From Candidatus Micrarchaeota archaeon (GTDB taxonomy: Archaea; Micrarchaeota; Micrarchaeia; Norongarragalinales; SBBD01), in contig JAHJQN010000004.1 of assembly GCA_018819225.1 (NCBI GenBank), positions 685-64,684 on the forward strand: 64,000 nt of DNA, read 5' to 3'. Numbering within the stretch: position 1 is the stretch's first letter; each line of letters begins with the position of its first letter. A program made the position numbers and the translations under genes. The notes beneath the pieces are model-generated. The model was not told where the DNA came from and did no database searches. It saw only the letters and a list, made by a program, of their open reading frames with translations. This document shows, piece after piece, positions 1-34,300 of the stretch.

Positions 1-5
1 TCGAG

Positions 6-259
6 GCTTCAATGGAGCCACGGTTTTTCAACCATGGGAAACGGGTTATGGGCGTTAATTTTTATAGCGGTGTTTAGCTTCAATGGAGCCACGGTTTTTC
101 AACCATGGGAAACTTCAACAGTATTCCAATCACTAGTATCGGGGTCAGGCTTCAATGGAGCCACGGTTTTTCAACCATGGGAAACTTTCGCCCAACGATA
201 CCCCGCCCCAGCTCCAGGTAATGCTTCAATGGAGCCACGGTTTTTCAACCATGGGAAAG
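6..259 (-). CRISPR. CRISPR array, partial (runs off the window start). Four copies of a 37-nt repeat, + strand GCTTCAATGGAGCCACGGTTTTTCAACCATGGGAAAC, at 6-42, 77-113, 149-185 and 223-259. Spacers are 34, 35 and 37 nt.
   Basis: Repeats read directly. Copies 1-3 are identical and copy 4 differs only at base 259 (G for C). The strand call is tentative. On the minus strand the repeat reads GTTTCCCATGG...CCATTGAAGC, the internal stem CCAUGG/CCGUGG closes with a G-U wobble (C-A mismatch on the + strand), and the array is co-directional with the cas operon. Confidence 0.93.
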
Positions 260-426: not shown

Positions 427-726
427 TTACACTATTGTTGGCGATCGGTCTTTCAAAGGTTTCTGCCTGCCTATGGACTCAATACGGTTTTTGCCCGTTC
501 CTTCTGCCGGTCCAAGGTTTGCTATGATTATCCGGTCTTCGTCTTGTTTGATTATTTCCGTTAGGGCTGCGTAGAGCATGACTTTTTCTTTTGGGGTAAG
601 CCGGCAAATGAATACGGAATATTGTGTATGTTCGCCGTATCCTTTCATCGTTAGGTAAACTTGGTGAAGGCGTTTTGGGTCCATGATGTCATAGCTTACC
701 AGATAGACGTTTTTCATTATCGTCAC
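427..726 (-). CDS. cas2: CRISPR-associated endoribonuclease Cas2
   Basis: 99 aa. N-terminal beta strand VYLVSYDI with the conserved Asp. Size and position directly after cas1 are typical. 4-nt overlap with the upstream gene. Confidence 0.9.
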   Translation of the reverse strand: MTIMKNVYLVSYDIMDPKRLHQVYLTMKGYGEHTQYSVFICRLTPKEKVMLYAALTEIIKQDEDRIIIANLGPAEGTGKNRIESIGRQKPLKDRSPTIV

Positions 727-2399: not shown

Positions 2400-2425
2400 T
2401 CATCATCGCGCCTCCTGGATCGGTT

Positions 2426-3952
2426 TCAGTTTTTTATCGGGAGAAACAATCCAAGGCCAAAATGGTTTCCGTAGCCTACGGCAATCGGTCCTTGGCGTGG
2501 TTCGTTGAATTCCAGCTCGCAAGAATAGCCAGTATTTCCAGCTCTCTGCCCCCCACCGGTCTTGCGTTGAAGCGAAAAGCCCATCAGCGAACGGTCGGCG
2601 AGGCCCAGCGGCCGGCATTTGACTTTAGCGGCAATATGCCCGTCGGCTGAAAGAAGCCTCGACAAGTCGTGTTCCGGCGAACCGATTTGCAGCCCGCTTA
2701 TTGTGTCAATCTTCGGTTTTCCTGCCCGGGTAAACTTGGGATATCTCGTCGGAACGAATGGCGTGCTGGACTTCCATCGGAGTGATTTCGAGAATAGTGG
2801 AACGCCGTCGAAGGTCTTCTTGTCTCCCACCGCCAAAAGCATTAAACGGATGTCATGGCCGCCGTGGCCCCAGACTTTTTCGATTCCGCGAAGGGCGCGT
2901 TCGGCATTTTCATTGAAGCCCATTTGGGCATAAACCGTAACGTAATTAACGGTTTTTCTCGAGCGACTTGGCGCGTCCGTGCTTTCGCAAAAAATATAGG
3001 CATGCTGGTGCCCTTCAAGAGGTCTCCGTTCTTCATCGCAGCCAGTAAAAACCAGTTCTTCATTGGACAGTTTTACGAGAGACTGGTGGATTCTTTCGGC
3101 TAACGATAGCGCGTGCTTCAAATTGGGTTGAACCGCGCTTGCTATCGCGTACCTTGCAACAGTCGGCTTCGTTGTACGCGAAAAGGGCGTTAAATCTGAG
3201 AGCACGTTCAACACTTGCTTCTTGCGTGCATAACGCGCCCATTTGCTGGCCGGCGGCTTGTCCCAGCCCTCGTCCTTCATATCGCTCACTTGGACTTTCA
3301 TCGCCCCGAAAGTGTTTTCCGGTAACCCAGTTTTTACGAATTTGCCGGCGTTTTCGGACTTCCATGTGTCATATTCCTTTTCGCCCATGCAAGCAAGCAG
3401 CCGTATCAGTTCATGCTTTCCATCGACGGGAAGTTCGGCTGCCGGGTAGGCTCGGCTGTAGGAAGCATCGCCATCTATTTTGACAAGCTCTTGTTCGTCC
3501 GCTAGCCGGGCATCTGCTTGTGACTCCGCGCGGCCGAAATAGCTTAGTCCTGCGAGCAGTTGCCCCAATGCTCGGGTTTCCCTAGCATCCAACTCGATTG
3601 CGTTCCAATAAACTACCAGCGGCTTTCCTTCCGGGACGGCAGCAAAAGCGTCGAGAACTAGGGCCGTGTTTTCTCTTCCATCCTTGATTTCCCCGATTGG
3701 CATGAAGTGGCGAGTGTGAGCCAAAGTTGCCGGAGGAAGGAGGTAGTCCGGCAAGGCGCTCAATTTGTCTAGAAGGGAAATGAACTCTTCCTGCTTAATG
3801 ATATCCTGGCCTTTCTGGTACCATACCGCGATGAGCGCGCGCAAAAAACGCCAAGGCGACGGAGGCCATTCTATCGCGCCTTCGTTTACCTGCTTGTCCC
3901 AAGGGGTGGCGTGGTACTTGCCGGCAATGAAGTTTATTCTTACGGCTAGCAT
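2426..3952 (-). CDS. csb2: Csb2 (Cas5-Cas6 fusion, GSU0054 family) of subtype I-G
   Basis: 508 aa. The N-terminus AIEWPPSPWRFLRALIAVW matches my recollection of the Csb2 family. It sits between cas7 and cas4-cas1 as in I-G loci. Confidence 0.75.
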   Translation of the reverse strand: MLAVRINFIAGKYHATPWDKQVNEGAIEWPPSPWRFLRALIAVWYQKGQDIIKQEEFISLLDKLSALPDYLLPPATLAHTRHFMPIGEIKDGRENTALVLDAFAAVPEGKPLVVYWNAIELDARETRALGQLLAGLSYFGRAESQADARLADEQELVKIDGDASYSRAYPAAELPVDGKHELIRLLACMGEKEYDTWKSENAGKFVKTGLPENTFGAMKVQVSDMKDEGWDKPPASKWARYARKKQVLNVLSDLTPFSRTTKPTVARYAIASAVQPNLKHALSLAERIHQSLVKLSNEELVFTGCDEERRPLEGHQHAYIFCESTDAPSRSRKTVNYVTVYAQMGFNENAERALRGIEKVWGHGGHDIRLMLLAVGDKKTFDGVPLFSKSLRWKSSTPFVPTRYPKFTRAGKPKIDTISGLQIGSPEHDLSRLLSADGHIAAKVKCRPLGLADRSLMGFSLQRKTGGGQRAGNTGYSCELEFNEPRQGPIAVGYGNHFGLGLFLPIKN

Positions 3953-3961
3953 ATTCTCACT

Positions 3962-4999
3962 TCATTCGGCTTCTCCGCCGTCTCCTTCGACATCGTCTTC
4001 ACTTATTCCAGCCTCACCTTTTGCTTTCTTATCTTTCTTGCCGACAAAGGTTTCGGTCAGCGAAGGCGAATTACCTAGTAAATGCGTTTCTTTGCATTTT
4101 CGGATGAGGGCGGGAAGCTCTCTCGATAATTCTTCTTCCGAGGGAAAAACAAATCCATCTGGCGAGGTTATTTTGATTGCTTCGGCTTTCAGGTCGCAAG
4201 CAGTTCTGAACCGCAGACCTTCGTTAAGCACCTTCCTGATTTTGAAGAGGGCCAATGCAACCAATAGCTTTTCGGCGTCTTTGCCCAAGCCGTATCCTCG
4301 AATCTGCGCCAAATCGAGGCTGAAAAAGGCGGTTATCTCTCCAGTATACTCGCTTCTTGCATAGGGCACATTGCCATATCCCTTGCTTGCGCCACCTTCT
4401 TCTTTGTTGGATGGGCTTACACTGTCGTTTTTCACGCCACCGCTGACTGCTTCGCTCACTCGTCTGGCTTCAACAAACGCGCTCAATGCACGCGCCACCC
4501 GGCATCGCCCTCCTGCATAATCTGGCATGAATATGCCATGCAGTAGAGCCCCTACGTCGTACTTGAACAGCAATTCCACTAAAGCCTTTCTTTCCGGATT
4601 GCCGAATGGCTTGTTCTCCTTCTTTCTCCCAAATCTATCTCCAAAATTCTTGTCGGTTTTGCTGTCCTTAGCGTCTAGGATATATGCGCTGTTAATCCTG
4701 TGCGCTTCAAGCATGCTGTTGGTCAATGGCTTGCCGGTTTGGTCATTTACTGCCACGTAGGGCAATCCTTTTAGTGGAGCAACTGGAGAATTGCCAATGC
4801 TGTCCCAGCAGACGGCTTCCATACGATTAGCCATGCTCTGGGCAGATTCTACGAGCAGCATTTTCGTGCCGTCGGGAGAATCGTACGTGGCTGCCCCGAT
4901 GTCCGGGAACCCGGTTGGCTGAAACCTTGTCCCCTGCAACGGCTTCAGTTCAACGCTGATTAACAGCCGCGGCTTTCCCTTCAAACCATCTAGATTCAT
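3962..4999 (-). CDS. csb1: Csb1 (Cas7, GSU0053 family) of subtype I-G
   Basis: 345 aa. Motifs RFQPTGFPDIG and LLVESAQSMANRME fit Csb1-type Cas7. 4-nt overlap with the upstream large-subunit gene. Confidence 0.75.
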   Translation of the reverse strand: MNLDGLKGKPRLLISVELKPLQGTRFQPTGFPDIGAATYDSPDGTKMLLVESAQSMANRMEAVCWDSIGNSPVAPLKGLPYVAVNDQTGKPLTNSMLEAHRINSAYILDAKDSKTDKNFGDRFGRKKENKPFGNPERKALVELLFKYDVGALLHGIFMPDYAGGRCRVARALSAFVEARRVSEAVSGGVKNDSVSPSNKEEGGASKGYGNVPYARSEYTGEITAFFSLDLAQIRGYGLGKDAEKLLVALALFKIRKVLNEGLRFRTACDLKAEAIKITSPDGFVFPSEEELSRELPALIRKCKETHLLGNSPSLTETFVGKKDKKAKGEAGISEDDVEGDGGEAE

Positions 5000-7158
5000 A
5001 CTCCCACCTCTTCGCGATTTAATAGCCTCAGTTTGAGAAGCGTAATATCCTCATACCCAAGCGGAAAGAGCAATGCTGCTGCAATCCGTTCGCACGACTT
5101 TGCCGGAATAGTAAAACTTGCGTATCCAGGAATCCGGCACCCGTCCGAATGCAATCGATGCACGGAGAGCTCAAGAGCTTTTTTTCCATCGCCAGAAGCC
5201 AGCCGTTTGTGTATTGCAGGAACCAACCGGATTTTGCTCCCGGTGACTTTGATGCCGATATAGCAGAGCTTTGCCACGGCATAACCTGCGCCAGGAAAAA
5301 GGCTTCGGCTTCTCCAGTCTTTAACTCGACTGCTTTGCAAAGCATTTTCACGCACGTCATTCCATTTCAAAAACATGAACCCGAACAGCAAGTCAACCAT
5401 TTTCTTCTCATCAAGGAACCCTTCCAGAAACGCATTCACGTCATTAAGGCGCGCACTAACTTTAGAACAGTCAGAGTAATTTGTAAGCCCAGCTTGTTGC
5501 AGTCTTAGAATGCGGTCTTTCATAATTTCATTTAGAAGATGGACAGGTTCCCCTGTAAACCGTAGCCATTTTTCCACATCCTTTACAATAACTCTATCCG
5601 TGTTATAGCGCGCCGTTTTCCTGTGCTGGTTTACCATCCAACGGCTGAATTCGTGGCTTAATAGAGACGCCAGCGATGCCGCAAGCCGGTATTCAGGGGT
5701 GCCGTCGTTGGCTTTCTCAAGCCATTTCGATGAAAGCATTTTACTTGCATTCAGGTTCCATCCCTTCGTATGCCGGACAGATTCTTTGACTGTTCTCCCC
5801 AAGACCGCAATGGTTTCCGCTGCCGGTTCCGGGTCTTCAAAACCGCGGTGGCACAAGCGGATTAGATTTTCTTCTAATTCCTTCAAGGCTATGGATTTTG
5901 ATTCGGAATCGTCGCTTTTCCTGTTTCTCCCAAGCCAGTCAATGGGGTCTTGGAGGAACTCCGCTGACGCCTTTCCCCGGGCGTCGAAGGTATCGTGTTT
6001 AACTGCAAAAAAAGCCTTGCCGTTGCGTTTAATAAAGGCATAGCGGTGAAATGAGTCGAGTCCGCGGTCAGTCCCAAGAGAAGACACGGATTGGGCGAAC
6101 TCGATAGCGTTTTTGGCACTGCGGTTTCCGAATTCTGCGCGGCCTTCTGAAAATAGGAATTCAATCTCGTTTATTGACGCGGGCTTTTCCCATGTCGGTA
6201 GCCACATCTCAGAACGGATCTCCTCGCCGGCATTGTATTTCTTCCGTTTCAGGTTAACGGCAGTCCCATAGCCACTAGTCGACGGCCTAACGCTGAACGG
6301 GAATGACATTGACGCAACAGATTGCTTGTGTTCGTATCTTCTTACTGCAGCGCCAGCGAAAACCAAAACCCCCTCGAGCGCCAGCACATAATCCCATGGA
6401 TTTGCAAAACTTTCCGAAACAAACCCAGTTGAAGCATTGAAGTTGCCAACTGCACTTGGATTAAGCTGCCCGAACTTTTCCTTTTCAATCCTATCAGTTT
6501 GTAAGTTAAACAGAGAATTTTGCAAATTCATTTTGTTATTTTCTTCCGGATTGACTGTAAAAATAGTTGAAATCCGTCTGATGAAAAGACTCGAAAAATC
6601 AGCCCTGCCGTCGTTTCCCCCTCCACCAAGCATGGGAAAACCCGCCCAATCTGCTTCAGTGGAAGTTATAACCAATACCGCATCAATCCACCTGACAGCT
6701 TCATTCGGCAAGCTATTTCTCAAACGAACAATCAAACTACTTTTTGCATCCCCGCCTTCTTTCTTGCCGATTTTATCTAGTGGCAAGCCATCATTTTTTG
6801 CGCCTTCCATTACCGTTCGAGCCACTTTTATGGTTTCAGCAAATTTTTCCAATCTTGGATTGTCAGAGTTCTCTATGTCATCCAAACCCCCGCTGGCTTT
6901 TTTATCCCCAAGGAATCCGCCGTCTTTGTTCCAAGGCGATACTATCGGAGTAGGAATATACTTATTAAGGAAAAAGCCCGTCAGATCTTCCTTGCTCAGT
7001 ACGGTCTGGAGAACGAACACGCCGTTTTTCCAGCAACCTCTTGCTCCGCTATCCGCCTGTTCCGCCACCAGTCGGAATACGCCAAGCGCCTTCAAGTAAT
7101 TGGACATGGGTTCCGTCGTGCAGCCTCCAAGATCAATATCGAGTGTTTCTCCGGTCAT
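4996..7158 (-). CDS. csx17: Large subunit Cas8u2/Csx17 of subtype I-G
   Basis: 720 aa, between cas3 and csb1 and translationally coupled to both by 4-nt overlaps. Assigned mainly by synteny and size; sequence-level recognition is weak. Confidence 0.6.
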   Translation of the reverse strand: MTGETLDIDLGGCTTEPMSNYLKALGVFRLVAEQADSGARGCWKNGVFVLQTVLSKEDLTGFFLNKYIPTPIVSPWNKDGGFLGDKKASGGLDDIENSDNPRLEKFAETIKVARTVMEGAKNDGLPLDKIGKKEGGDAKSSLIVRLRNSLPNEAVRWIDAVLVITSTEADWAGFPMLGGGGNDGRADFSSLFIRRISTIFTVNPEENNKMNLQNSLFNLQTDRIEKEKFGQLNPSAVGNFNASTGFVSESFANPWDYVLALEGVLVFAGAAVRRYEHKQSVASMSFPFSVRPSTSGYGTAVNLKRKKYNAGEEIRSEMWLPTWEKPASINEIEFLFSEGRAEFGNRSAKNAIEFAQSVSSLGTDRGLDSFHRYAFIKRNGKAFFAVKHDTFDARGKASAEFLQDPIDWLGRNRKSDDSESKSIALKELEENLIRLCHRGFEDPEPAAETIAVLGRTVKESVRHTKGWNLNASKMLSSKWLEKANDGTPEYRLAASLASLLSHEFSRWMVNQHRKTARYNTDRVIVKDVEKWLRFTGEPVHLLNEIMKDRILRLQQAGLTNYSDCSKVSARLNDVNAFLEGFLDEKKMVDLLFGFMFLKWNDVRENALQSSRVKDWRSRSLFPGAGYAVAKLCYIGIKVTGSKIRLVPAIHKRLASGDGKKALELSVHRLHSDGCRIPGYASFTIPAKSCERIAAALLFPLGYEDITLLKLRLLNREEVGV

Positions 7159-9662
7159 TCCAATCTCTCCTTTTTAGAAGCCTTCCAGTCAGCGATTCTC
7201 AACAGCATCTCGTAAAACCCAAGGCGAAACGGGCCCATGTTCGGGTCGTCACGCAAAGCGAGCGTCCGTTCGAGCCAACTACCTTCGCCGAGTTCCATTG
7301 GCGACAAGTCCAGTTTCACGCCCGAAGGAAGCATAGGCGGCACGGGCGGCAGTTCATCGCCGTCTTTAATTCCCCGCACCATACGCATCCCATCATCGGG
7401 CTGTGATTCTCCAGGTAGGGACCGCAATGACAAACGCACTTTCCCGTGGTGGGCGGCAATTAAATAGGCTATCAAGTCCGCGTTGGCTTGGCCGCTTGCG
7501 CCATTTTGAAGCCATGCTAGGGCTGACGCAAGCTCATGCCGGAAATGTTTTCTTTCATATTTTCCGCCTTTTCCTTTCGATTTAGCCCAAAGCTGGCTCG
7601 CGTCTAAATCAGGGTTTACATTCCGAAGCATGCCTTGGAATACCGGGTGCGATTTGCCTACATCATGCCAGCGGGCAGAGGTTTTAATGGCATCAGCTTT
7701 ATCTGGTTCCAGCCCGATTGCATCTGCCAACAGCGCAGCTTCTTTTTCAATGTCTATCAAGTGCGTTTCAAGAAGGACTGCCTTTCCGATATACGTTAGC
7801 GGGTCACTGTCGTGACTATCTACATCAGTTCTTGCATCTTCGCCTCCAGACGTGTTTTTTGGCTGCCATTCTTCGACTTTATTACGGCCTACGAGCTCAG
7901 TGTCCCAGCCAATTATCTTATTGTAGCCGCCATCTTTGCAGCCGAGTAGCAAGATTTGGCCAGGAGCTAGAAGTCTTGGGTCTTTCACTCGTTCGAACTT
8001 TTCTTCCAACGGATTCCAACGCAAAAAGCCGGTAAATGCATTTTTCCTGGGTTTGGGCTTTTCCTTGCTTTCATCGCCTTCAGCGCCTTTAGGTTTTCCC
8101 AATAGTCTTCTCACATCCCCAATCGGCACGCTACAAAGCTCCTCCCGCACCGGTTCAATATAATCTGATTTTTCATCGACATTCTTTTTCCAGAAAATCT
8201 GCACATCCGTATCGCCAGTTTCTCGAATGAACCTGGACACGTCAAGGTCGTTGCCGGTTAAGTCGGGTGTCGTATCGAAGAGGTCAACAACATCACGCCA
8301 CCGAATTACTTGGCATTCCATTTGCGAGGGCTTAAAATCCCGGCTTGCCTCTTCCAAGCTGTTTATACCAACGTCATTGAGTTTGGCAAGCAATTTCCTC
8401 GCCGAGTCCACTTCTAAGGGTAAATAGGGCGCATGGAAGTCAGTCTTGCCCCTCCCATTATCCGAATCCAGGGCATTTGAAGCATCTGCCCACATGACTT
8501 CTGCAATGTCATCACATTCCCCGTACCGATTGCATCTACCAAAGCGCTGCACGAGCGAAGGCCAAGAGGCAATTTCGGTAAAGAGCTTTGCAGCGGATAC
8601 ATCAACGCCTGCCTCAACCACTTGTGTCGCAACCACGACACGGCTCTTGCCCGCGTTGTTCTTGCCAACCAACCATTCAATGTTTTCTTTCCGATCTTCA
8701 GGACGAAAACGAGAATGGATGAGAATGACATGAATTCCCGATTGGGATGCATCTACCCGGTTTTTTACTTCACAGAACAACCTCCGAGCCCGCTCAACAG
8801 TATTTACGACTGCCAAGCTTAGTGTTCCGTTGGAGTGGCCGTCAACAAGGATTTTAGCCACCTTGCTGAAATAATCCTTGTCATCAATAGTAACGTGCAG
8901 TTTTTTCAAGGGCTTAATTGCATCGAGGCGTTTTTTCAGGTTCGGCTGGCCCTTGTCTTCGTCACCGAGTACGAGAACGCCTTCCATTTCTGGGGCGGGG
9001 TGGTCGAAAGTCGTCATCCGATTCCTATCCACTGTAGCGCTCATCCAAAGCGTGTGGGCGGGTTTCATGCAACCGAGTTTCAAGCGCATTGCCTGCATTT
9101 GCGCCGAAGTCTCCACGCCAACGCCCATGAGTTGGACTTCATCCATTACCCACAGGCAATCATTGTTCAACAACGCGTAGTGGATGGGCCAACGATTACG
9201 AGACATACCATAACCCCGGTTCAAAGCCCTCGAAAGCAGCATGTCTTGAGTGCCGATGAGTATAGCATCATGTTCGGGATATTCATCCCACTCGTCCTTG
9301 CTCTCTCCTCCCATCAAAACCGTGACCGCGATATTATCTTCACCGCTTCCGGGCGTTTCCGCAAGCAAATCCAGGTTCTTAAGCCATTGTCTCGATTCTT
9401 CCCGAGTCTGTTCCACCAATACCCGCATTGGCAGGCAGTAAACAAGCCGCCGCGGCGTACTAGCTCGGATTGAGCTGCCTGAGAAACGCCGCCGCCACAA
9501 CCAAGCAAGTACGGCAGCCGCGGTCTTCCCCGCGCCAGTCGGAACATTCAAAACTTCGGGAAATTCCGCAGATGAAGCCAGTTGCCTCTGGTACGGGAAA
9601 GGCTTTTTTCCAGTCGTCTTCTCAAAAAAGTCTTCGAACGATATATATGAACTGGTGGTCAA
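7155..9662 (-). CDS. cas3: Cas3 helicase-nuclease with the HD domain at the C-terminus
   Basis: 835 aa. Helicase motif I NVPTGAGKT and motif II VMDEVQL. C-terminal HD signature (RWHDVGKSHP, HELASALAW, IAAHHGK). A C-terminal HD domain is the I-G arrangement. Confidence 0.9.
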   Translation of the reverse strand: MTTSSYISFEDFFEKTTGKKPFPYQRQLASSAEFPEVLNVPTGAGKTAAAVLAWLWRRRFSGSSIRASTPRRLVYCLPMRVLVEQTREESRQWLKNLDLLAETPGSGEDNIAVTVLMGGESKDEWDEYPEHDAILIGTQDMLLSRALNRGYGMSRNRWPIHYALLNNDCLWVMDEVQLMGVGVETSAQMQAMRLKLGCMKPAHTLWMSATVDRNRMTTFDHPAPEMEGVLVLGDEDKGQPNLKKRLDAIKPLKKLHVTIDDKDYFSKVAKILVDGHSNGTLSLAVVNTVERARRLFCEVKNRVDASQSGIHVILIHSRFRPEDRKENIEWLVGKNNAGKSRVVVATQVVEAGVDVSAAKLFTEIASWPSLVQRFGRCNRYGECDDIAEVMWADASNALDSDNGRGKTDFHAPYLPLEVDSARKLLAKLNDVGINSLEEASRDFKPSQMECQVIRWRDVVDLFDTTPDLTGNDLDVSRFIRETGDTDVQIFWKKNVDEKSDYIEPVREELCSVPIGDVRRLLGKPKGAEGDESKEKPKPRKNAFTGFLRWNPLEEKFERVKDPRLLAPGQILLLGCKDGGYNKIIGWDTELVGRNKVEEWQPKNTSGGEDARTDVDSHDSDPLTYIGKAVLLETHLIDIEKEAALLADAIGLEPDKADAIKTSARWHDVGKSHPVFQGMLRNVNPDLDASQLWAKSKGKGGKYERKHFRHELASALAWLQNGASGQANADLIAYLIAAHHGKVRLSLRSLPGESQPDDGMRMVRGIKDGDELPPVPPMLPSGVKLDLSPMELGEGSWLERTLALRDDPNMGPFRLGFYEMLLRIADWKASKKERLE

Positions 9663-9754: not shown

Positions 9755-10735
9755 ATGTGTTTAAAGCTTCCGCAACCTCGTTTCCTGAATGCACTGTTTG
9801 GACTCGACTGCACCATTACCCGTAACGGGTCGGGTAACCACGCTGGGCCCAAAGTGAAAAGCGGAGAGGTAGGCCGTCGAGTGTCGTTAAAGCAGGGGCT
9901 ATTCTGCTCCATTCAGAAGGTCTATAGCCAGCTTTCGAGCAGACGGGCGTATTCGCTTTACAAGAACGCGGAAGGCAGAGAGCAGATAGCGAAAGCGCCC
10001 AGCTACAATGTCGTGAACGTGTTTCTGAACCGTGAGGACGTTACTCCACTACTGCAAAACCTACTATCGCTCTCTGCCATGCCGTTGAAGGCAGTAGAAA
10101 CCGACTTCGCAGTAGATAGCTCTGGATTCAGGACTACCTGTTTTGGCGCATACGCCGAAGAGAAGTATAGCCTGCAAAGAGTCCACAAGTTCATCAAAGC
10201 CCACGCCATCATAGGTGTTAAAACGAATGTAATAACCGGTGTCGAAGTCTTGGAGGGCAACAGCGCAGATAGTCCGCAGTTGCCTGTTCTTGTTGAAAGG
10301 ACGGTTGAAGGGGGTTTCATAGCCAAGGAAGTGTCTGCCGACAAAGCATATAGCGGCCGGTCAAATATCGAAGCTATACACGCGGTCGGCGGGACTCCTT
10401 ACATACCTTTCAAGAGCAACGCTTCGGGCAAGAGCAGGGGTTCTTCCCTATGGCGCAAGGCGTTCTTCTTTTTCCAACTTCACGCCGACAAGTTCTTTCA
10501 ACACTATCACAAGCGCAGCAACGTCGAGAGTGTCTTTGGAGCAGTCAAAAAGAAGTTCGGCGAAACCATCAAGGCCAAGAACCCCGTAGCCCAAAAGAAC
10601 GAGTTGCTATGCAAGCTGATAGCCTACAACGTAACCGTATTGATTCAGGAAATGTTTGAACTCGGAATAAAGCCAGACTTCTCTGCTCAGGAAGTCGGCG
10701 GGGGCTCACAAAGTAGCCTTATGAGCAGACTTTAA
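9755..10735 (+). CDS. DDE transposase, IS4/IS5-like, probably lacking its N-terminus
   Basis: 326 aa. Candidate DDE residues lie in AVDSSGF, SADKAYSG and NVESVFGAVKKKFG. The region before VSLKQGLFCSIQKVYSQLSSRRA looks like only the tail of the usual N-terminal domain. The frame closes at a TGA at 9692-9694, only 33 nt from the cas3 start. Confidence 0.7.
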   Translation: MCLKLPQPRFLNALFGLDCTITRNGSGNHAGPKVKSGEVGRRVSLKQGLFCSIQKVYSQLSSRRAYSLYKNAEGREQIAKAPSYNVVNVFLNREDVTPLLQNLLSLSAMPLKAVETDFAVDSSGFRTTCFGAYAEEKYSLQRVHKFIKAHAIIGVKTNVITGVEVLEGNSADSPQLPVLVERTVEGGFIAKEVSADKAYSGRSNIEAIHAVGGTPYIPFKSNASGKSRGSSLWRKAFFFFQLHADKFFQHYHKRSNVESVFGAVKKKFGETIKAKNPVAQKNELLCKLIAYNVTVLIQEMFELGIKPDFSAQEVGGGSQSSLMSRL

Positions 10736-10743
10736 GAGCAAAG

Positions 10744-10849
10744 CTCCCTTCCGGCCATCGACGAGGACCGTTTCGTTGCCCGCCATTTCCTATCCTTTCC
10801 TATCCCCTACCCGGAAGCCCGCTATGACCTAGGAAATGAACTCACTGCC
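10744..10849 (+). repeat. Repeat C1, about 105 nt
   Basis: Manual alignment to 13854-13958 gives 82/102 identical positions. Contains CTTCCGG...CCGGAAG and CATTTCCTA...TAGGAAATG complementary pairs in interleaved order. Confidence 0.85.
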
Positions 10850-10882
10850 CTAAAACGGATATGTCCGTGTTTTGACTATATA

Positions 10883-12404: not shown

Positions 12405-12432
12405 TAATGAATCATTGACGAAAAACCTTGCC

Positions 12433-12551
12433 GCTGCTCATGATTTATTTCATCTCGCCAAAGGTTGATTTATATTTTCGCGCCGAATTCGGTAATCTAA
12501 TGCCGACAATTTTGATGCTTTTAGCCTACGGCAAGGAATGCGGCCAAGGCG
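12433..12551 (+). repeat. Cassette-junction element copy A1 (degenerate)
   Basis: Contains GCTGCTCATGATTTATTTCATCTCGCCAAAGGTTGATTTAT, the palindrome GCCGAATTCGG and the end GGCCAAGGCG. Aligns with 17425-17540. Confidence 0.85.
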
Positions 12552-13646: not shown

Positions 13647-13704
13647 CCCGCTCCATCAAGGTTATCAGAAAAACGGGTGGTAGCTGCAAATTTGTGATAA
13701 CTGA

Positions 13705-13780
13705 CCAAGGGTTATTTAAATTTTCGTGCTTAATTTGGCACTGTGGTGCCAACTTTTCGAAGGGGTCTAGACGCAGGTGA
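13705..13780 (+). repeat. Cassette-junction element copy B1
   Basis: CCAAGGGTTATTTAAATTTTCGTGCTTAATTTGGCACTGTGGTGCCAACTTTTCGAAGGGGTCTAGACGC. Same architecture as the other copies. Confidence 0.8.
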
Positions 13781-13853
13781 ATGCCTCGCCCTCAAAACCG
13801 CTTGTTTTTCACCCCTGGCACAGCTCTTCTTGCTCGAATCTATATAACGTCTG

Positions 13854-13958
13854 CTCCTTCCGGCCATTGACGAGAGCTATTATGTTGCCCGCCATTTCTT
13901 ATGCTTTCCCATTTCCTACTCGGAAACCTACCGTGACATAGGAAATGAACTCTCTGCC
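13854..13958 (+). repeat. Repeat C2, a solo copy of the transposase 3' flank
   Basis: See C1. There is no transposase next to this copy. Confidence 0.85.
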
Positions 13959-13976
13959 GGAGAACCTTCTACATAT

Positions 13977-15037: not shown

Positions 15038-16123
15038 CTATTCTACACTTTTCTGGGTGCCTTTTTGGAGATCCTTGAGTTCTTGGATGATGACATTGAG
15101 GTTTAGTAGTTGTGCGACGTGCATGACGTATAAATTGTGGTCTGGGCGGCTGAATATTTCTGGTTTTGCTAGAAATTGTCCCACTCGGGAGTCGTACGGC
15201 GATAGCTTTCTGTCCGCTTTGGATAGTTGTTTTATCGCAATGCGGGGGCTTCCGTAAATGCTTGCTGCGGTTTGAGCGTGTTTGGTGAAATCCGTTCTTC
15301 CACGTGCATTAACCAGAAGGTTGCGCAGTTCTTTTTTTTGTTTGGGTGTGCCTCCGGCTGCTGCTGCGATTCTTCTTGCCGCGAGAGACCATACGACCCC
15401 CTTTATTCGGTTGTATTTTGCTATCGCTTGCGGCTTGCCTTCGAGCAGTTCGTCCAAGTCGTAGGGTGTCTTGGCGTATAGCCGATCGAATTTGCGTTTT
15501 AATTCCTTGAACGTTTTCCAATGGGCGATGTTAGTCTTCTCTGCCGGTATGGCCTTGGCGGCTTTTACTGGTTTGTGTTCTTTTACCGCTTGGAGGTATG
15601 CGGTTAGCCCGTTTTGGTGGGCGGTAATGTTGGTTAACCTGTTAGAATATTTTTCCTGCAATTCCTTGTATTGCGGGTTTTTCAGAAGATCTTCTTCCAT
15701 GGCGTAGGAGTAGATTGCGACCTTTACTTTCGGGTGCCGTTCAAGCACTTCGCGTGCGACCGAAATTCCGGTTACCGGCATTTTTACTTCGGCTTGGGTT
15801 GCAAGTTGGTGAAATTGCCTCGCGTTCGGCTCGCTTGTATTTGCGTCCCTCATGAATTGCAGCGCCTGCTGTTCCGAGCGGCCTTCCATAACGTAGCGTC
15901 GCATTGCTTCGTTAGGCCACCGGATGCGGCTTAGGTCGTATGTAACATGGTCGGTCAGCTGCCAGTCAATAATCACGTGGGTCGGCTTGTGCGCCCGGAT
16001 TTCGCTGTGCATCTCCAGCGGGAATTTTGCGTGGGCAGCGGGCATCCCGTGCTCGTTTATCGTGTTCGTGATTAGTTGCCGTACGCCCGGCTCGTCGTGT
16101 ACAACCAGCAGTTTCGGTGGCAT
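15038..16123 (-). CDS. Hypothetical protein with a degenerate receiver (CheY-like) N-terminus
   Basis: 361-aa ORF preceded by its own TATA-like promoter. The N-terminus KLLVVHDEPGVRQLI...THVIIDWQL resembles a REC domain with substitutions and an insertion. No other recognisable motif. Confidence 0.6.
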   Translation of the reverse strand: MPPKLLVVHDEPGVRQLITNTINEHGMPAAHAKFPLEMHSEIRAHKPTHVIIDWQLTDHVTYDLSRIRWPNEAMRRYVMEGRSEQQALQFMRDANTSEPNARQFHQLATQAEVKMPVTGISVAREVLERHPKVKVAIYSYAMEEDLLKNPQYKELQEKYSNRLTNITAHQNGLTAYLQAVKEHKPVKAAKAIPAEKTNIAHWKTFKELKRKFDRLYAKTPYDLDELLEGKPQAIAKYNRIKGVVWSLAARRIAAAAGGTPKQKKELRNLLVNARGRTDFTKHAQTAASIYGSPRIAIKQLSKADRKLSPYDSRVGQFLAKPEIFSRPDHNLYVMHVAQLLNLNVIIQELKDLQKGTQKSVE

Positions 16124-16217
16124 GATTTGCTTCTGTCTGCGTTTTCTTTAAAACCCTTTCAAAAAGGCGGTTTTCCCAACTTTCATTCAGTATACTGTCG
16201 GGCATTTGACAAGAAAA

Positions 16218-17276: not shown

Positions 17277-17424
17277 ATGATCGTTAATTTGAATTAGGTT
17301 TTAAATATTGTGTGATACCAGCTTAGAAGCCCGCATGTCATTCCTTTCAGATTTTATCGCTTACTTACGCATCAGATTGTTTGAACGACGCGCCTCCATC
17401 CAAAACCGTTTCTCGAACCAAATC

Positions 17425-17540
17425 GCTGCTCACGATTTATCTCATCTCGCCAAAGGTTGATTTATTGATTCGCGCCGAATTCGGCACGACAGTGCCAACT
17501 TTTTTGAGGCGTTGAGCCCTCGTCCAGGAGCTCGGCCAAG
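17425..17540 (+). repeat. Cassette-junction element copy A2
   Basis: GCTGCTCACGATTTATCTCATCTCGCCAAAGGTTGATTTATTGATTCGCGCCGAATTCGGCACGACAGTGCCAACTTTTTTGAGGCGTTGAGCCCTCGTCCAGGAGCTCGGCCAAG. Confidence 0.9.
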
Positions 17541-18110: not shown

Positions 18111-18232
18111 CACCGGTTATTTAAATACGAGTGTAGCACGTTTCGGGTAATTTATTATTTCGCGTCGATTATGACGCGCAAACGCCAATTTTTAAGGCCT
18201 TGACCCCTCGTCTAGAAGCTTGGCCAAGGCGT
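18111..18232 (+). repeat. Cassette-junction element copy B2 (long variant with a duplicated AT-rich 5' module)
   Basis: GGTTATTTAAATACGAG..., then TTTATTATTTCGCGTCGATTATGACGCGCAAACGCCAATTTTTAAGGCCTTGACCCCTCGTCTAGAAGCTTGGCCAAGGCG. Confidence 0.8.
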
Positions 18233-18268
18233 TCTGGCTTTTTTTTTGGGGGGGGGCATCGTTTCAGG

Positions 18269-18922: not shown

Positions 18923-18942
18923 TATATGTGTAATCACATATA
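18923..18942 (-). promoter_or_regulatory. Palindromic operator in the vapBC promoter
   Basis: Perfect 8-bp arms TATATGTG-TAAT-CACATATA overlap a TATA-like ATTTATAT (minus strand) about 20-45 nt upstream of the vapB ATG. Confidence 0.5.
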
Positions 18943-19035
18943 AATACCTTTGCATTTGTTCATTCGTGTATTATAGTTCCTTTAACTTCCTCTGCTTTAT
19001 GAAAAGTCTGACCAGAATATTATGGATAAACTTGG

Positions 19036-19128
19036 CAAAGGTTGATTTATTTATTCGTGCCAAATTTAGCACGATAATGCCATTTATTTTGAGGCGTTGA
19101 GTCCGTGTCTAGGAGCTCGGCCAAGGCG
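19036..19128 (+). repeat. Cassette-junction element copy A3
   Basis: 93 nt, with 90/93 positions identical to 20289-20381 by manual count. Confidence 0.92.
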
Positions 19129-19450
19129 TCGAACCTATACCTAACAGTAGGTTCGACTCCCTATCAGGGTGTCATACCTTCGCCGTTGGTGACCCTGTTT
19201 TGGGCCTTTCTGAAGCCTTTATTGGCTTTTCATTGGCTTTTTTGACGCTATTTTCCCATTTTCCTGGCAACCACCTTTGACGCTCTGGCTCAAGCCTTTG
19301 CTCTATAAATAGCTTGCTCCAGCACCCTGATTCCGTTCATCAACAAAATCCTTTCAGGCGATAGGCTAGGAGGTATTGGATTCCTTGCAATTACATTTCG
19401 AGACACCTCGCGGCTCGCAATCTCTGACTTGCCATGCCCTTACTAATGCC

Positions 19451-19510
19451 GCAAGGGTCTCATATCAATTCGTGCTAAATTTGGCACGGTGGTGCCAACT
19501 TTGTTGATAG
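19451..19510 (+). repeat. Cassette-junction element copy B3 (5' half only)
   Basis: GCAAGGGTCTCATATCAATTCGTGCTAAATTTGGCACGGTGGTGCCAACTTTGTTGATAGG. Confidence 0.7.
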
Positions 19511-19567
19511 GACCAGCAAACGGCTTAACCTCTCGTTAGGGTTTTGATGTGAAATGTGCCACAATTA

Positions 19568-20227
19568 TTATTGAGCACTTGCCGACTCTTTGAATTCTCT
19601 TCTTATCTTTTCTGCTTTTCGAAGCATTTTGTTTATCGCTCCACGATTAAACCAGGTGTCGGGTTGAAATGGAAACATGCGCCCATCCATTAGTTTATAG
19701 TCTATGATTACCGGAATCGATTTGCCTTCTCCGATATTCTTCACCATAATGTTATCCGGGTGAAGATCCATTAACGGCGTCTTATTGGATTTAAAATAAT
19801 TAATAAGTTCATCGAATTTACTCCAAAAATGTGGGTTGAGCTTGCCTTGGTTCATGCTGAGCGGCGTTGCTGGAGTTCCATCCGCATTTCTTACTCGTTC
19901 CATGTGGAGGACGCTGTTAAGCCCTGAACCCTCTAACTTCAATACTTTCGCAAAGCAATCTGACAATCTGCGAGGCGAGTGGGAAAAACAGCGGTTGTAG
20001 TTATCTTTTTCCATACGATTTAGGTCGGTTGATCCATATTTCCAGCGGATATACCAGCCTAAAGGGTAATCGACATGGAAAAAACCATAGTTTTTTGTCC
20101 GAAAACCTTTGTGTCTTTTTTCAACGATGTCTTCATGAAAAGTTACTTTTCGGTATCTTCCTTCACCGATTGACGCAAGTCGTCTTCTGCTTTGTTGTTC
20201 GGGCAAGCCCCCGATTTTGAAACGCAT
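19568..20227 (-). CDS. Atypical protein-kinase-like protein (YrbL/Kdo-kinase-like fold)
   Basis: 219 aa. Catalytic-loop-like MDLHPDNIMV followed by VIIDY (DFG-equivalent position). The assignment rests on these motifs only. Confidence 0.5.
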   Translation of the reverse strand: MRFKIGGLPEQQSRRRLASIGEGRYRKVTFHEDIVEKRHKGFRTKNYGFFHVDYPLGWYIRWKYGSTDLNRMEKDNYNRCFSHSPRRLSDCFAKVLKLEGSGLNSVLHMERVRNADGTPATPLSMNQGKLNPHFWSKFDELINYFKSNKTPLMDLHPDNIMVKNIGEGKSIPVIIDYKLMDGRMFPFQPDTWFNRGAINKMLRKAEKIRREFKESASAQ

Positions 20228-20288
20228 AATTACCTTCGGTCTTATCTTTCTTTAAAACCCTTTCAAAGTTGGTTTTTTCCTTAGTTTT

Positions 20289-20381
20289 CAAAGGTTGATT
20301 TATTTATTCGTGCCAAATTTAGCACGATAATGCCATTTATTTTGAGGCGTTGAGCCCGCGTCTAGGAGTTCGGCCAAGGCG
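20289..20381 (+). repeat. Cassette-junction element copy A4
   Basis: 93 nt, near-identical to A3. Confidence 0.92.
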
Positions 20382-20391
20382 CTCGGAATTT

Positions 20392-20709
20392 TTAATCGAT
20401 TCGAAATACTCGGAACTGTTCGTCTTCATACTCGGCCGCAAAGGTTGATATGAGACGCTTGACCGTTGGACACAATGTTTCGCTGTCCGATTCCTTGCGT
20501 TGAACAAACGCTCGCACTTTTCCTTCTTTCATGAATTGCATTGCAACTGATAAATCGCTGCAATACTGCATACCCGACTTCACGTTCTGCATTACGCTCT
20601 CATCAAAAGGCCCGTAAGCCGCGTCCCTTCCGGATAATTGAATCCATTGAGCCTTAGTCACCATAGATAGGAGTGCGCATTCTGGGATATTACGTTTCGT
20701 TGCCTCCAC
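20392..20709 (-). CDS. Hypothetical protein
   Basis: 105-aa ORF filling the last module of the island. No recognisable motif. Confidence 0.45.
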   Translation of the reverse strand: MEATKRNIPECALLSMVTKAQWIQLSGRDAAYGPFDESVMQNVKSGMQYCSDLSVAMQFMKEGKVRAFVQRKESDSETLCPTVKRLISTFAAEYEDEQFRVFRID

Positions 20710-31311: not shown

Positions 31312-34300
31312 TTATTTCTTCTTGGCCTTCTTTTCCTTCTTCTTGCCGCCCAATACGAACAAGAACGCTAGGGCAATCAATCCCAGCACCGCCAAGCCGT
31401 ACTCCCACGGGAATAATCGTCCTGCAAACAAGCCCGTCAATGAAGACGTTTCTTCATCGGATTCCATTTCCAGTTCTTGTCCGCTAGACGATTCCGTTGG
31501 CACTGTTTCCTCTATCACTTCTTCAGCGGGAATCACGGTCCACTCGTTCTTCTCTTCAACCTCTGTCGGGGACGCGGGTCGTTCCTTTTCTTCGACCTCG
31601 ACAGGTTCCTGGTTTTCTGCAGGAGGTTGGGCCACGTAACCGCTTGAGTAGCTTCCACTACTTCCGCTGCTTCCTTGGTTGTTGGCCGGTGGTGGTGTTC
31701 CGGGTGCTTGGGCCACGATTTTCTCTCCTACGTTGCCTACCGCGTCCACGGCGCTGACACTCCACGTGCCTTCCACGCCTCCGGTATCGAAAGAGGTTTC
31801 TTCCGTCATGCCTACATACCCGTCGTTAACGAATACTTTGTAGTAGTCGATGCCGCTGGGGTCCGTGGCTGGCGTCCAACTCACCTCGTCTCCTGAAATG
31901 ATAACGTTCGTGGGTCCGTTGGGTCCCTGTAAATCGATAATGAACTCGAGTTCAGGGTCCGTGCAGTGGGGCGGAATATCATCGTCTGGAGGCAGATCGC
32001 CTTCGAAGAGGATATCGCACGCGCGCGAGCGGAGGTAGTACGTTATTCCGTTCTCTAATCCTTCTTCAAGGGCGTTGAAGTCTTCTCCATAGATCCCTTC
32101 AAACATATCCCCTTCAAGCAAGGGAATGGTTCTCCAGTCGGAATCGTAGGTGGTTTCATTTCCAATAGGCGTGCCTCCTAGCAACGTATTGATGTCTTCG
32201 TAGATGCGGTATTGCACCGTATCCGCAAGTACTCCGGACACGTCGGAAACGTCCAACGCGATAGGAATGACTTCTCCATACGTTTCTCCGTAGACGGGGG
32301 AGATAATCATCTTATCCGGTGGCGTGTTATCGACCATCATCGTCGTGCTCGTGTTGCCTCGGTTGTATTCCATGTCCATGGCATACAACCACAACGTATG
32401 CGATCCGTCCCACAATCCTACTCGAACGTCTCCAAATACCTTGCATGTGTGATCCGTCAGGATTTCGCCTGCAAAGTTGAAGTGTTGTGGTTCTTCGAGG
32501 CATTCGTCGAGTACGTGGATGGTGATGAGTTGTTCTCTCAATATCGCTCCGTCTCCAAGGATTCGAATCCAGAAAATGTAGTCTCCGGGTTCGGTGCCTT
32601 CCGGTACTTCAAACCAGAACTCAAAGAACAGGGTTTGGTTTCCTGTTACGTTCTCGTAATTGAATGGCGTCCAAGTCACCCAGTCCGCGTATCCGGGCTG
32701 GATTTCAACGTACACTTCGTCAATTACCGCCGTTTCATTTTCAATGGATGCGACAATGACTTCCGGAATTTGCGAGGAATCATTCAAATCAAAGTACTGG
32801 CCTCCGGTTTGATCGGACATGTACTGCCATGCATTCGGATCTTCTCCAGAGAATACGGAAATAACGGATAGTTTGTTGGTGGCTAATTGCCCAACGACTT
32901 CCTCGAAATCGAGGTCGTCTTCCGTGTCAACGATTTCATCGCGTCCCGGATCCTTGCCCGTTGAATATCCGTTGAATCCGCAATCATGCGGAACATCGTC
33001 TCCGAACATGATGACGATTTTCTTTGCGGTGTCCCTGAATCCAGCGAATTGTGCTTCATAGAGCGCGCGTGTGTACGATTCCGGCGAATCGTATCCGGAT
33101 CCTAAATTCAGGTCGTTGATGGCATCAGAAACAGCGGAAGTGTCGCCCGTTATGGCCTCGTCCAGCATGTACGAGTAATCGCCTTCCTCAGGGTCTCCGT
33201 ATGTTGCAGAGTATCCGCAGTTGCTGCCCTCATCATCTATATACTGGTGCGGGTAGTCCATGAACGAAGCCGCTCCGAACATGGAGTCATCCACGAGCAG
33301 GCTGATCGCGTCCATGATATCCAGTGCAGACCCTTTCACTTCGTCTAATTCATCTCCCATGCTGCCCGTCAAGTCCAATGCGAACAAAACGTCGATAGCG
33401 GTGATGGGAGTCGAGTTCGTGGTCACGTTCTTTTCTTCGTGCACGTTTTCTCCGGGGTATAGCCATGCTTCGACTGTGTTCTCAGTAAAGATCGGGTCAT
33501 AGCCTTCTTCTTCTCCGCATTCGGATTGAACGATTTCTCCCGAACATTGGAGCAATGCGGAGTCGGGATCCGTGGCTTCCAAGTAAGCGACGAAGTAGTC
33601 GTTCGTTGAAATCGGGCCGTCAAGTCCTTCCGTATCCGTCAGGATGACGAATGGAGGTTCGTTGTCAATGTCCATGACAATCGGATCATTTTCGGCATCC
33701 TGCGCAATCGCGTAGAGCCGGTTGCAGCTGCGGTCCGATATGTCGATGACGAGATACGCTTTATCTGTTAATCCCGAGTCTTCCGGAATCTGGAGCGTTC
33801 CATCGCATACTCCATCAGAGTATGGAACCGTTCCAAGCGGCACCATCAAATAGCGGTCGCCCAAGTAATCCAGCAAATCGTAGATTTCGTATCCGTGGTT
33901 CAACATCCACATGACGTACGCGAGTTCGTCACCGTTGAGTTCTTCAAAGAAGATGTCGATGGCGTAGAACGTGCATTCATTAAATCCGGATACCGGATTG
34001 CCTTCGTCATAGGCCGGCGCATATACCGAGAAGACTTCCCCGTCGTGGTACCATCGTCCGGAAGTGGGGTTCAAAACCCATGCGCGCGGTTTCTCCTTGT
34101 CGAAGTAATCCGTTTCGTTCTGGATCATTTCATAGTTGCCCAACAAATCTTCGCTGTAGTACTCGAATTCGTACACTCCTTGGTGCTTGTCGTGGAACGA
34201 GAAGTTCGATTCCGCATCATATTCATACCATCCGTGCCACGGTCCGTTGTTCTTGCGGTAACGGTAATACGTGGTCGCGTTGTCGATGTGGCAAATCGCT

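Follow-up and report, generated by a model that had tools for sequence, protein, structure and literature searches.

A dyad element repeated in an accessory island of a Candidatus Micrarchaeota genome and its association with a Xer-like recombinase gene

The locus described here raises a simple question: why is a short DNA element repeated several times, always in the same orientation, among the accessory genes of an archaeon? The element lies in a 64,000-nt stretch of Candidatus Micrarchaeota DNA (contig JAHJQN010000004.1 of assembly GCA_018819225.1, positions 685 to 64,684), hereafter called the window, and the copy under study is designated A2 (coordinates are compiled in Table 1). The original prediction, made from the letters of the sequence, described an AT-rich TATA-like box followed by a palindrome kept by paired substitutions, an overlapping second hairpin, a T-tract and a GC-rich tail, and considered a dimeric-protein site, a DNA or RNA hairpin and a tyrosine-recombinase core site as possible explanations. 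The best-supported lead, by association, is the last of these: the palindrome belongs to a family of sites whose canonical member lies directly upstream of a Xer-like recombinase gene, and the copies found in the window may be orphan versions of a recombinase-binding site.

Seven related copies of 60-117 nt are found, all of them on the + strand of the window; those claimed besides A2 (A1, B1, B2, A3, B3 and A4) do exist. Copies A1-A4 and B2 show 72-97% identity across ~90 nt. In B1 and B3 only the head and a ~34-nt core are kept, and B1 has a ~32-nt deletion relative to its homologue in another genome. Pairwise blastn between copies yields E-values from 1e-7 to 1e-38, and an 18-mer core pattern has 4 matches in the window compared with 0.01 expected. 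Hidden Markov models (HMMs) of the copies detected no further copy in the remaining ~56 kb of the window nor in the ~9 kb past its left end. The similarity between A3 and A4 (97% identity) extends over exactly 93 nt, ends sharply and gives way to unrelated flanks. Because copies with 75-90% identity to those of the window are also found in two other species, these features indicate duplication or recombination rather than convergence.

Among 185,579 species genomes, the core pattern TTCGYGCYNAATTYGGCACNNNNGTGCCAAC was found at one locus and a relaxed version, TTCGYGCYNAATTYRGCACNNNNRTGCCA, at three loci, all of them in metagenome-assembled genomes (MAGs) of Candidatus Micrarchaeota. Locus L067 harbors a copy with an A-type tail that adjoins a Fic gene, in a region homologous to window positions 13660-13962 over ~330 nt, and locus L068 harbors a copy with a B3-type tail. 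In locus L069, a copy is found between the start of a 401-aa Phage_integrase-family gene, whose product has a C-terminal zinc ribbon, and the 3' end of a tRNA-Leu gene; a weaker, inverted copy lies past the other end of the recombinase gene. Other searches were negative or yielded spurious matches. The first genome-wide pattern, based on the A-type head (AAGGTTGATTTATNNNTTCG), gave 46 single matches in unrelated bacteria and 8 in viral contigs, all attributable to chance; the 46 are considered so because nhmmer shows that the similarity is limited to the pattern. The A-type pattern had 0 matches in Joint Genome Institute (JGI) metagenomes, the strict core pattern had 0 in viral contigs, and blastn of A3 against plasmid and phage collections found no match. 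A relaxed triple-site pattern matched once, in a viral contig of 62% GC and without a head, probably by chance.

The motifs of A2 are located where they had been described: CAAAGG at 17451-17456, GCCGAATTCGGC at 17474-17485, GGCAC at 17483-17487, GTGCC at 17492-17496 and a T6 run at 17500-17505, with a GC-rich tail (GAGGCGTTGAGCCC...GGCCAAG) that ends at 17540. The palindrome is part of a dyad whose family consensus is GTGCC-nAATTn-GGCAC. The AT-rich TATA-like box is found 8-10 bp from the dyad, on the side opposite to the second GTGCC (the third half-site discussed below), and is oriented to the minus strand.

The view that each copy contains all these parts needs, however, some correction. 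A TATA-like box is indeed present in the head; the box assigned to B2, GGTTATTTAAAT (18116-18127), is not homologous to that head; in the alignment, the head of B2 is CGGGTAATTTATTATT (about 18144-18159). Because GGTTATTTAAAT lies 25-33 nt ahead of the GTG start codon (18094) of the minus-strand antitoxin open reading frame (ORF), it looks like the TATA box of the antitoxin operon itself. The CCAAC motif plus T-run is found in A2, B1 and B3, while the other copies are just T-rich at that place; similarly, the GGCCAAGGCG tail is kept by A1-A4 and B2 but is missing from B1 and B3. The possibility that the B1/B3 core is an inverted version of the A3/A4 core is not supported: both are one transition away from a perfect palindrome, GTGCCAAATTTGGCAC, which is present in L067 and L068. 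Hence, the changes in A3/A4 (G to A) and in B1/B3 (C to T) are independent single transitions rather than an inversion, and each is one-sided, not compensatory.

The conservation of symmetry was examined in 40 distinct copies aligned without gaps, whose consensus is AAGGnCTATTTnTnGnTTn-GTGCC-nAATTn-GGCAC-nATn-GTGCC. The dyad (columns 25-40) is made of 5-bp arms around a 6-bp AT-rich centre, and covaries: 80.6% of its cells are paired, compared with 68.4% in shuffles, and 42 cells show changes on both sides, compared with 14.2 ± 3.2 in shuffles (0/500), with the provision that anchoring of the alignment by eye on the palindromes and the phylogenetic relatedness of the sequences both inflate these pairing figures. 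Double changes occur in 8/8 pairs, and pairing falls to ~33-41% if the register is slid. Examples of arm pairs are ATGCC/GGCAT, GCGTC/GACGC, ATGTC/GACAT and GAGACAC/GTGTCTC. The claim that the symmetry of the palindrome is kept by paired changes is thus borne out. The second hairpin (columns 36-49) fares differently, as it does not covary: 81% of its cells are paired compared with 77% in shuffles, and double changes are found in 10 cells compared with 6.6 (54/500). The third GTGCC, though conserved, shows no covariation with either arm in the 40 copies. What had been described as a second hairpin is a conserved third half-site.

An RNA hairpin encoded on either strand should favor one class of mismatch. 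In the arms, G·T (14) and A·C (13) mismatches are equally common and show no strand preference; the symmetry therefore belongs to duplex DNA recognized by a symmetric protein. This observation points to protein-bound double-stranded DNA rather than to an RNA hairpin as the predicted nature of the element. Between the explanations that had been left side by side, a dimeric-protein site or a DNA/RNA hairpin, duplex-DNA symmetry favors the former and the balance of mismatches speaks against the RNA version of the latter.

Action at the RNA level deserves nevertheless to be considered. A plus-strand hairpin, formed by either stem and followed by a U-tract, might serve as a terminator or attenuator, or the TATA-like box might drive a small RNA gene. 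In A2, B1 and B3, GGCAC-n4-GTGCC is followed by CAAC and T3-T6; T-runs are also found after the tail of A2, B2 and A4; A1 and B1 lie just 3' of plus-strand genes; and some single-copy folds have z about -3. Besides the lack of covariation in the second stem and the equal frequency of both mismatch classes, the difficulties are that folds differ between copies, several being no better than shuffles, that recombinase-adjacent copies have no T-tract, that a plus-strand transcript starting 25 nt past the box would begin ~10 nt before the T6 run, and that no Rfam match exists. Furthermore, the box that was proposed to drive a small plus-strand RNA is placed, in canonical copies, for transcription of the minus strand and of the recombinase gene (see below), and does not point to such an RNA. 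We consider an RNA-level element very improbable.

Other candidates were rejected. Both strands of the element are open (plus, ...KVDLFIRAKF...; minus, ...ALAELLD.GSTPQ...), but a start codon is missing from most copies, and neither third-position excess nor codon periodicity is seen among the substitutions; a small ORF was thus discarded. ARAGORN and Rfam give no support to a tRNA fragment or att core; the reverse complement of the tail is loosely like a class II tRNA D-arm, and the flank of A3 has a GGTTCGA-like box. Regarding Rfam families, a window scan at gathering threshold found only tRNA-Ile, and an E-value scan of 12-21 kb yielded only noise.

The family of sites is linked to a recombinase gene. 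An HMM made from the seven window copies alone detected the site in four loci (L070, L071, L092 and L096), in each case immediately 5' of the recombinase gene. For a wider survey, 80 metagenomic recombinase loci were taken; inspection of all their upstream regions revealed this arrangement in many of them, and the site count was made over 76: a family HMM placed the site directly upstream of the gene in 41/76, always in opposite orientation to the gene, a figure that must be viewed as generous since this HMM was trained on many of the loci that it then scored. With the same HMM, the first matched recombinase codon follows the dyad centre at a median distance of ~54 nt. In canonical copies, the TATA-like box is located between the dyad and the gene; its midpoint precedes the minus-strand recombinase start codon by ~27-33 nt, and AAGG and a conserved GGAGG-like box come after it. 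In archaeal promoters, the TATA box is ~26 nt upstream of the transcript start; hence, the TATA-like box is the predicted recombinase promoter. Altogether, the suggestion of a tyrosine-recombinase site gains a strong association, the presence of a canonical site directly upstream of a Xer-like gene in many Micrarchaeota, and the link is one of association.

The recombinase family is widespread in Micrarchaeota: 3443 database proteins are detected at E ≤ 1e-10, and the best 120 show 55-90% identity. The closest solved relatives are XerA of Pyrococcus (4A8E, 1.4e-14) and Thermoplasma (5HXY), followed by XerD and IntI4. The best NCBIfam model, XerA_Arch (NF040815), gives 101-102 bits for three representatives, below the curated cut-off of 220, and the protein must be therefore described as Xer-like, not as a certified XerA. 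Because it is essentially absent from IMG/VR, the recombinase can be considered a cellular gene.

Recombinase loci usually have a tRNA-Leu beside the site. The tRNA gene is whole in L069, L076, L108, L116 and L117, and is represented by 11-20-nt 3' fragments (TGCAGGGGGAG...) in L070, L074, L075, L077, L090, L094, L114, L123, L129 and L150. When L069 and L150 are compared, two loci with 90%-identical recombinases, synteny is lost inside the last ~10 nt of the tRNA. Both the fragments and the synteny break in the tRNA 3' end argue for a site-specific insertion hotspot. In recombinase loci, AGGCGT, the first part of the GC-rich tail, is found again in the interval that separates the site from tRNA-Leu. 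The T-rich tract is absent from the recombinase-adjacent copies. A conserved ~40-aa ORF (MEDEKLSLDELKPLLPSWLWELKKK...; 1080-1202 in L069, and also in L071, L074 and L075) is convergent with the recombinase gene, with a slight overlap, and carries its own site in promoter position, so that, in that clade, inverted sites flank the recombinase gene on both sides. As a side observation, the accessory genes downstream of the recombinase (L150 12871-14547; P0004 contig) vary: one case has a Shedu-like SduA_C/NucS_C protein together with LigD fragments, and another has a methyltransferase and type IV secretion system (T4SS)-pilin-like genes.

A tentative interpretation, which we view as quite possible, is that the element is a dif/attI-type recombinase-binding site that overlaps a promoter, and that the window copies are orphan junction sites. 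The window element would be an orphan copy of a site particular to Micrarchaeota, whose canonical version is found in the promoter region of the conserved ~400-aa Xer-like tyrosine recombinase gene. The recombinase would bind the dyad plus the extra half-site, and the site might act at once as a recombination site (compare dif beside xerS, or attI beside intI) and as an autoregulated promoter. The inner dyad and its 6-bp centre have the geometry of Xer/dif core sites, in which a central region of 6-8 bp separates two inverted recombinase-binding arms; the identity of the protein that binds the site and the occurrence of recombination there are what we infer. The seven window copies, in direct orientation, would be junction sites left by the successive site-specific joining of modules; their extended homology and sharp ends give them the appearance of junctions between modules that accreted. 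Array copies may also provide minus-strand promoter activity and a plus-strand T-tract stop.

Several observations weigh against this interpretation. By tblastn, neither a recombinase gene nor a remnant was found in the window or in the ~9 kb past its left end. Every extra copy in recombinase loci is in promoter position before another gene, be it the 40-aa ORF (L069/L071/L074/L075), ORF135 of the ORF135-ORF285 pair (L081/L136) or a divergent recombinase paralogue (L081/L112), and this is what a transcription-factor regulon predicts. Ribbon-helix-helix (RHH)-PIN modules that are 55-65% identical to that of the window are found in three other Micrarchaeota contexts with no flanking site, and joint movement of cassette and site is therefore not supported. 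The dated synteny break between L069 and L150 falls in the tRNA 3' end, ~45 nt off the dyad. A chromosomal dif is expected to be unique in its replicon and to lie in the terminus region, and seven sites exist here within 8 kb. The symmetry is limited to the inner 5 bp of each arm, outer arm positions being asymmetric. The inflation of the pairing figures and the generosity of the 41/76 count act in the same direction.

Promoter positions of this kind call for an alternative, an operator-promoter module in which the dyad and the third half-site are bound by a dimeric transcription factor just upstream of the transcription factor B recognition element (BRE)/TATA box. The regulator might be a dedicated factor, or the recombinase acting as a repressor only, and would control the recombinase and a few neighboring genes; in the window, promoter modules would have been duplicated before accessory genes, toxin-antitoxin (TA) genes among them, and the site would not recombine. 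In recombinase loci the extra copies are at the same distance and in the same orientation from the start codon; in the window, a minus-strand gene is found on the head side of four copies (A2, B2, A3 and A4); and PIN modules move without the site. The half-site centres are 11 bp apart, a spacing that suits many dimeric archaeal regulators. The window copies are, however, difficult to accommodate. A1, B1 and B3 have no correctly oriented gene on their head side; the distance from the head to the next start codon is 50-175 nt, and every gene possesses a TATA box of its own that is closer to it; and all seven copies share one orientation in spite of the varied direction of neighboring genes. Moreover, similarity between copies extends over 93-117 nt, has sharp ends and includes the 40-nt tail, far upstream of any promoter, and is therefore not explained by regulon evolution. 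On its own, the operator-promoter module seems to us a doubtful explanation. The two readings are compatible, since both would hold if the recombinase bound a site of its own inside its promoter. That the answer lies instead among all the remaining readings, jointly considered, is unlikely.

One of these is a non-autonomous mobile element, akin to miniature inverted-repeat transposable elements (MITEs) or palindrome-associated transposable elements (PATEs), or else the end of an insertion sequence (IS). Spread by a transposase (e.g., DDE_Tnp_1, 9755-10735), it would have no relation with the recombinase. The sharp ends and the mutual similarity of the copies fit such an element; an IS is found at the island edge, and a repeat designated D9 follows the transposase gene and recurs beside B1. 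In contrast, the ends of A3/A4 show neither terminal inverted repeats nor target-site duplication, the copies are clustered, with none elsewhere in about 73 kb, and a mobile element would hardly account for a site that, throughout a phylum, keeps the same orthologous place ahead of the recombinase gene. We thus view this alternative as improbable.

D9 itself is a ~100-nt non-coding repeat (10747-10856 and 13856-13965; 572-724 in L067), with one copy directly 3' of the DDE transposase gene and another after B1. It contains a 10-bp inverted repeat (CATTTCCTAT...ATAGGAAATG) and is ~80% identical in another Micrarchaeota species. The TATA-like box TCTATATAA precedes D9 and shows a faint likeness to the upstream region of the second recombinase paralogue; an HMM of that region gives a marginal match at 13832-13857 (E 0.8). 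A lead is that the region upstream of this paralogue gave rise to D9. Alternatively, D9 might represent the end of an IS or a gene for a small RNA.

The array also brings to mind integron attC sites in a cluster lacking an integrase (CALIN). An attC site is defined by the inverted boxes R''(RYYYAAC)...R'(GTTRRRY) enclosing L''/L' boxes with extrahelical bases, over 57-141 nt. The window does contain an array of small modules, TA pairs included, parted by imperfect palindromes of ~100 nt in one orientation, and GTTGAGC fits GTTRRRY, as GCTCAAC fits RYYYAAC. Upon reading of the sequence, however, the R-like boxes either are separated by 11 nt or follow each other in the incorrect order, and an L''/L' pair with extrahelical bases is missing. 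In addition, cargo genes are on both strands, outer pairing is not conserved in A3/A4, and neither IntI nor another tyrosine recombinase is encoded in the window or in the ~9 kb past its left end. The covarying dyad is a 16-bp palindrome of the double-strand type, not a long bottom-strand hairpin. An attC array is, in our opinion, extremely unlikely.

Returning to the recombinase-site interpretation, the context of the copies is relevant. All seven lie inside a TA/Fic island (12.4-20.4 kb) that adjoins a type I CRISPR-Cas locus (CRISPR, clustered regularly interspaced short palindromic repeats). The island encodes a DUF4143 ATPase, two Fic proteins, a receiver-like protein and one of unknown type, a ParE-like toxin with its antitoxin, an RHH-PIN pair and a YrbL-like protein; a homologue search with the latter returned only the protein itself. 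Around the sites, the order of modules is ATPase / Fic / Fic plus 2 genes / ParE TA / PIN TA / 0.4-kb non-coding / YrbL-like / small ORF. Genes are found on both strands of the island, and every copy is at a module boundary, irrespective of the strand of the neighboring gene.

Table 1. Coordinates of the copies of the element, the parts of copy A2 and neighboring features of the window
Feature	Position	Strand	Description
Copy A1	12432-12551	+	28 nt past the DUF4143 ATPase stop, 160 nt ahead of Fic1
Copy B1	~13705-13766	+	Tail mostly deleted; inside a ~300-nt block (13660-13962) homologous to L067
Copy A2 (studied element)	17424-17540	+	93-nt core, 17451-17540; 27-nt left extension common only to A1
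Copy B2	18140-18232	+	Arms GCGTC/GACGC; between PIN stop codon and antitoxin-ParE promoter
Copy A3	19036-19128	+	Hairpin plus CTCCCT adjoins at 19129-19166
Copy B3	~19450-19512	+	Tail variant AGCAAACGGC, also in L068
Copy A4	20289-20381	+	97% identical to A3 over 93 nt, flanks unrelated
A2, head	17451-17471	-	AAGG plus AT-rich TATA-like box (TTGATTTATTGATT); homologous to promoter-proximal recombinase upstream region
A2, dyad	17472-17487		Left arm GCGCC, centre GAATTC, right arm GGCAC
A2, third half-site GTGCC	17492-17496		Direct repeat of left arm, 4 nt past right arm; conserved, non-covarying
A2, AAC plus T6	17497-17505	+	T-rich tract confined to orphan subfamily (window copies, L067, L068)
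A2, GC-rich tail (GAGGCGTTGAGCCC...GGCCAAG)	17506-17540		Common to A1-A4, B2 and L067
CRISPR array	4-259		37-nt repeat GCTTCAATGGAGCCACGGTTTTTCAACCATGGGAAAC, at least 4 units; continues past left window edge
Type I cas operon	723-9662	-	Cas_GSU0053-type Cas7, Cas4-Cas1 fusion, Cas2, Cas3
DDE transposase (DDE_Tnp_1)	9755-10735		IS at island edge

Additional features were observed next to the copies and between them. The hairpin plus CTCCCT directly after GGCCAAGGCG in A3 has a counterpart on the minus strand of L067 (about 730-765); the two stems, TCGAACCTA/TAGGTTCGA and TCTAGCC/GGCTAGA, differ at two pairs, in both of them through compensatory changes. The A3-B3 interval (415 nt) has no ORF of at least 50 aa. 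A T9 homopolymer followed by G9 is found at 18237-18256 (ctttttttttggggggggg), in the space that separates the tail of B2 from the stop codon of PIN. At 20431-20454, inside a 105-aa minus-strand ORF, CTCGGCCGCAAAGGTTGATATGAG resembles the end of the tail (CTCGGCC) joined to the head (CAAAGGTTGAT) without a dyad, and could be either a chance occurrence or a collapsed site.

Promoter regions of island genes show repeats of their own. In the RHH-PIN operon, a TATA box followed by the palindrome ATATGTGATTACACATAT is found at 18925-18950 and is conserved upstream of RHH in L154, L157 and L158; both motifs are kept in four Micrarchaeota genomes, in differing contexts, and ATATGTGATTACACATAT is presumably the operator of the antitoxin. 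The receiver-like and YrbL-like genes, which are unrelated to each other and both on the minus strand, have in common a 64-nt repeat (73% identity; 16120-16183 and 20224-20287) that spans their start codon together with their TTTTAAAG promoter region. This repeat is a second promoter module common to island genes.

In the neighboring CRISPR-Cas locus, the presence in the operon of a Cas4-Cas1 fusion, Cas2, a Cas7 of the Cas_GSU0053 type and Cas3 makes it look like subtype I-U/I-G. The window is part of a 709-kb metagenomic contig; a second metagenomic sample carries an identical stretch, and the CRISPR array is shorter or collapsed in that sample. The archaeal host assumed at the outset is backed by the aRF1, Cdc6/Orc1 and archaeal phenylalanyl-tRNA synthetase (PheRS) genes found in its DNA, and the best relatives are Candidatus Micrarchaeota; for aRF1, the closest ones are Candidatus Micrarchaeota MAGs with at best 66% identity. 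Elsewhere in the window, a 2331-aa minus-strand ORF (31312-38307) with at least 9 tandem repeats of ~309 nt (103 aa; 60-88% identity) probably encodes a large repetitive surface protein.

An attractive speculation, admittedly a doubtful one, is that Micrarchaeota have an undescribed cassette-assembly system, made of a zinc-ribbon Xer-like recombinase and a promoter-embedded dyad site by tRNA-Leu, copies of which would delimit and shuffle small TA, Fic and defence modules in chromosomal arrays. If true, it would be an archaeal counterpart of integrons and dif modules that uses double-strand sites of the attI/dif type, not attC hairpins. Among the papers listed in our literature searches on these topics, none describes the element or the recombinase subfamily in Micrarchaeota. 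The DPANN archaea (Diapherotrites, Parvarchaeota, Aenigmarchaeota, Nanoarchaeota and Nanohaloarchaeota) have very small genomes, and little is understood of the ways in which they gain and rearrange accessory and defence genes; a recombinase present throughout a phylum and accompanied by a conserved site, plus an array of sites among TA/Fic modules by CRISPR-Cas, provides a concrete, testable candidate mechanism. Even if the site proved to be regulatory, a conserved cis-element would have been defined in an uncultivated lineage, along with a small recombinase-centred regulon.

Systems with a single Xer recombinase, such as XerS/difSL and XerH/difH, keep dif beside the gene as one module (PMC5357621); in Thermococcales, the archaeal dif is not beside xerA (PMC2958812). 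The Micrarchaeota arrangement resembles XerS/difSL and XerH/difH in having a single Xer-like gene with an adjoining, imperfect dyad site whose inner dyad surrounds a 6-bp AT-rich centre. It differs in that the site overlaps the promoter of the gene, has a third half-site, also precedes other genes, and occurs as seven orphan copies in one island. The recombinase differs too, being extended at the N terminus and carrying a zinc ribbon at the C terminus, and its host belongs to DPANN.

Arrays of Xer-type sites provide a second term of comparison. In Acinetobacter, several pdif sites of the Xer type bound small modules, often of TA or accessory nature, and these dif modules are found mainly on plasmids (PMC6449649, PMC13141974). 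Integration of integrative mobile elements exploiting Xer (IMEX) leaves dif-like sites at junctions (PMC5357621). The window array is similar to both in that Xer-type sites bound small, discrete modules. A difference is that dif modules are flanked by inversely oriented XerC and XerD sites, while the window sites are all direct, chromosomal and would serve one recombinase; in addition, RHH-PIN homologues exist elsewhere without sites.

Archaeal operator-promoter modules, such as Lrp-type boxes, are alike in having an AT-centred palindrome of 16-18 bp directly upstream of TATA and before several genes. They differ from the element in its 93-117 nt of homology between copies, in the existence of three copies without a target gene and in the hypothetical nature of the regulator. 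Lastly, an integron attI is a simple site plus extra, directly repeated integrase-binding sites. Unlike the integron attI/intI pair, the Micrarchaeota system has no attC hairpins and no IntI-specific protein, its cargo is on two strands, and its array is not beside the recombinase gene. The likeness resides in a recombinase site placed in the adjacent promoter region, in the combination of an inverted pair with a direct half-site, and in the arrays of short modules.

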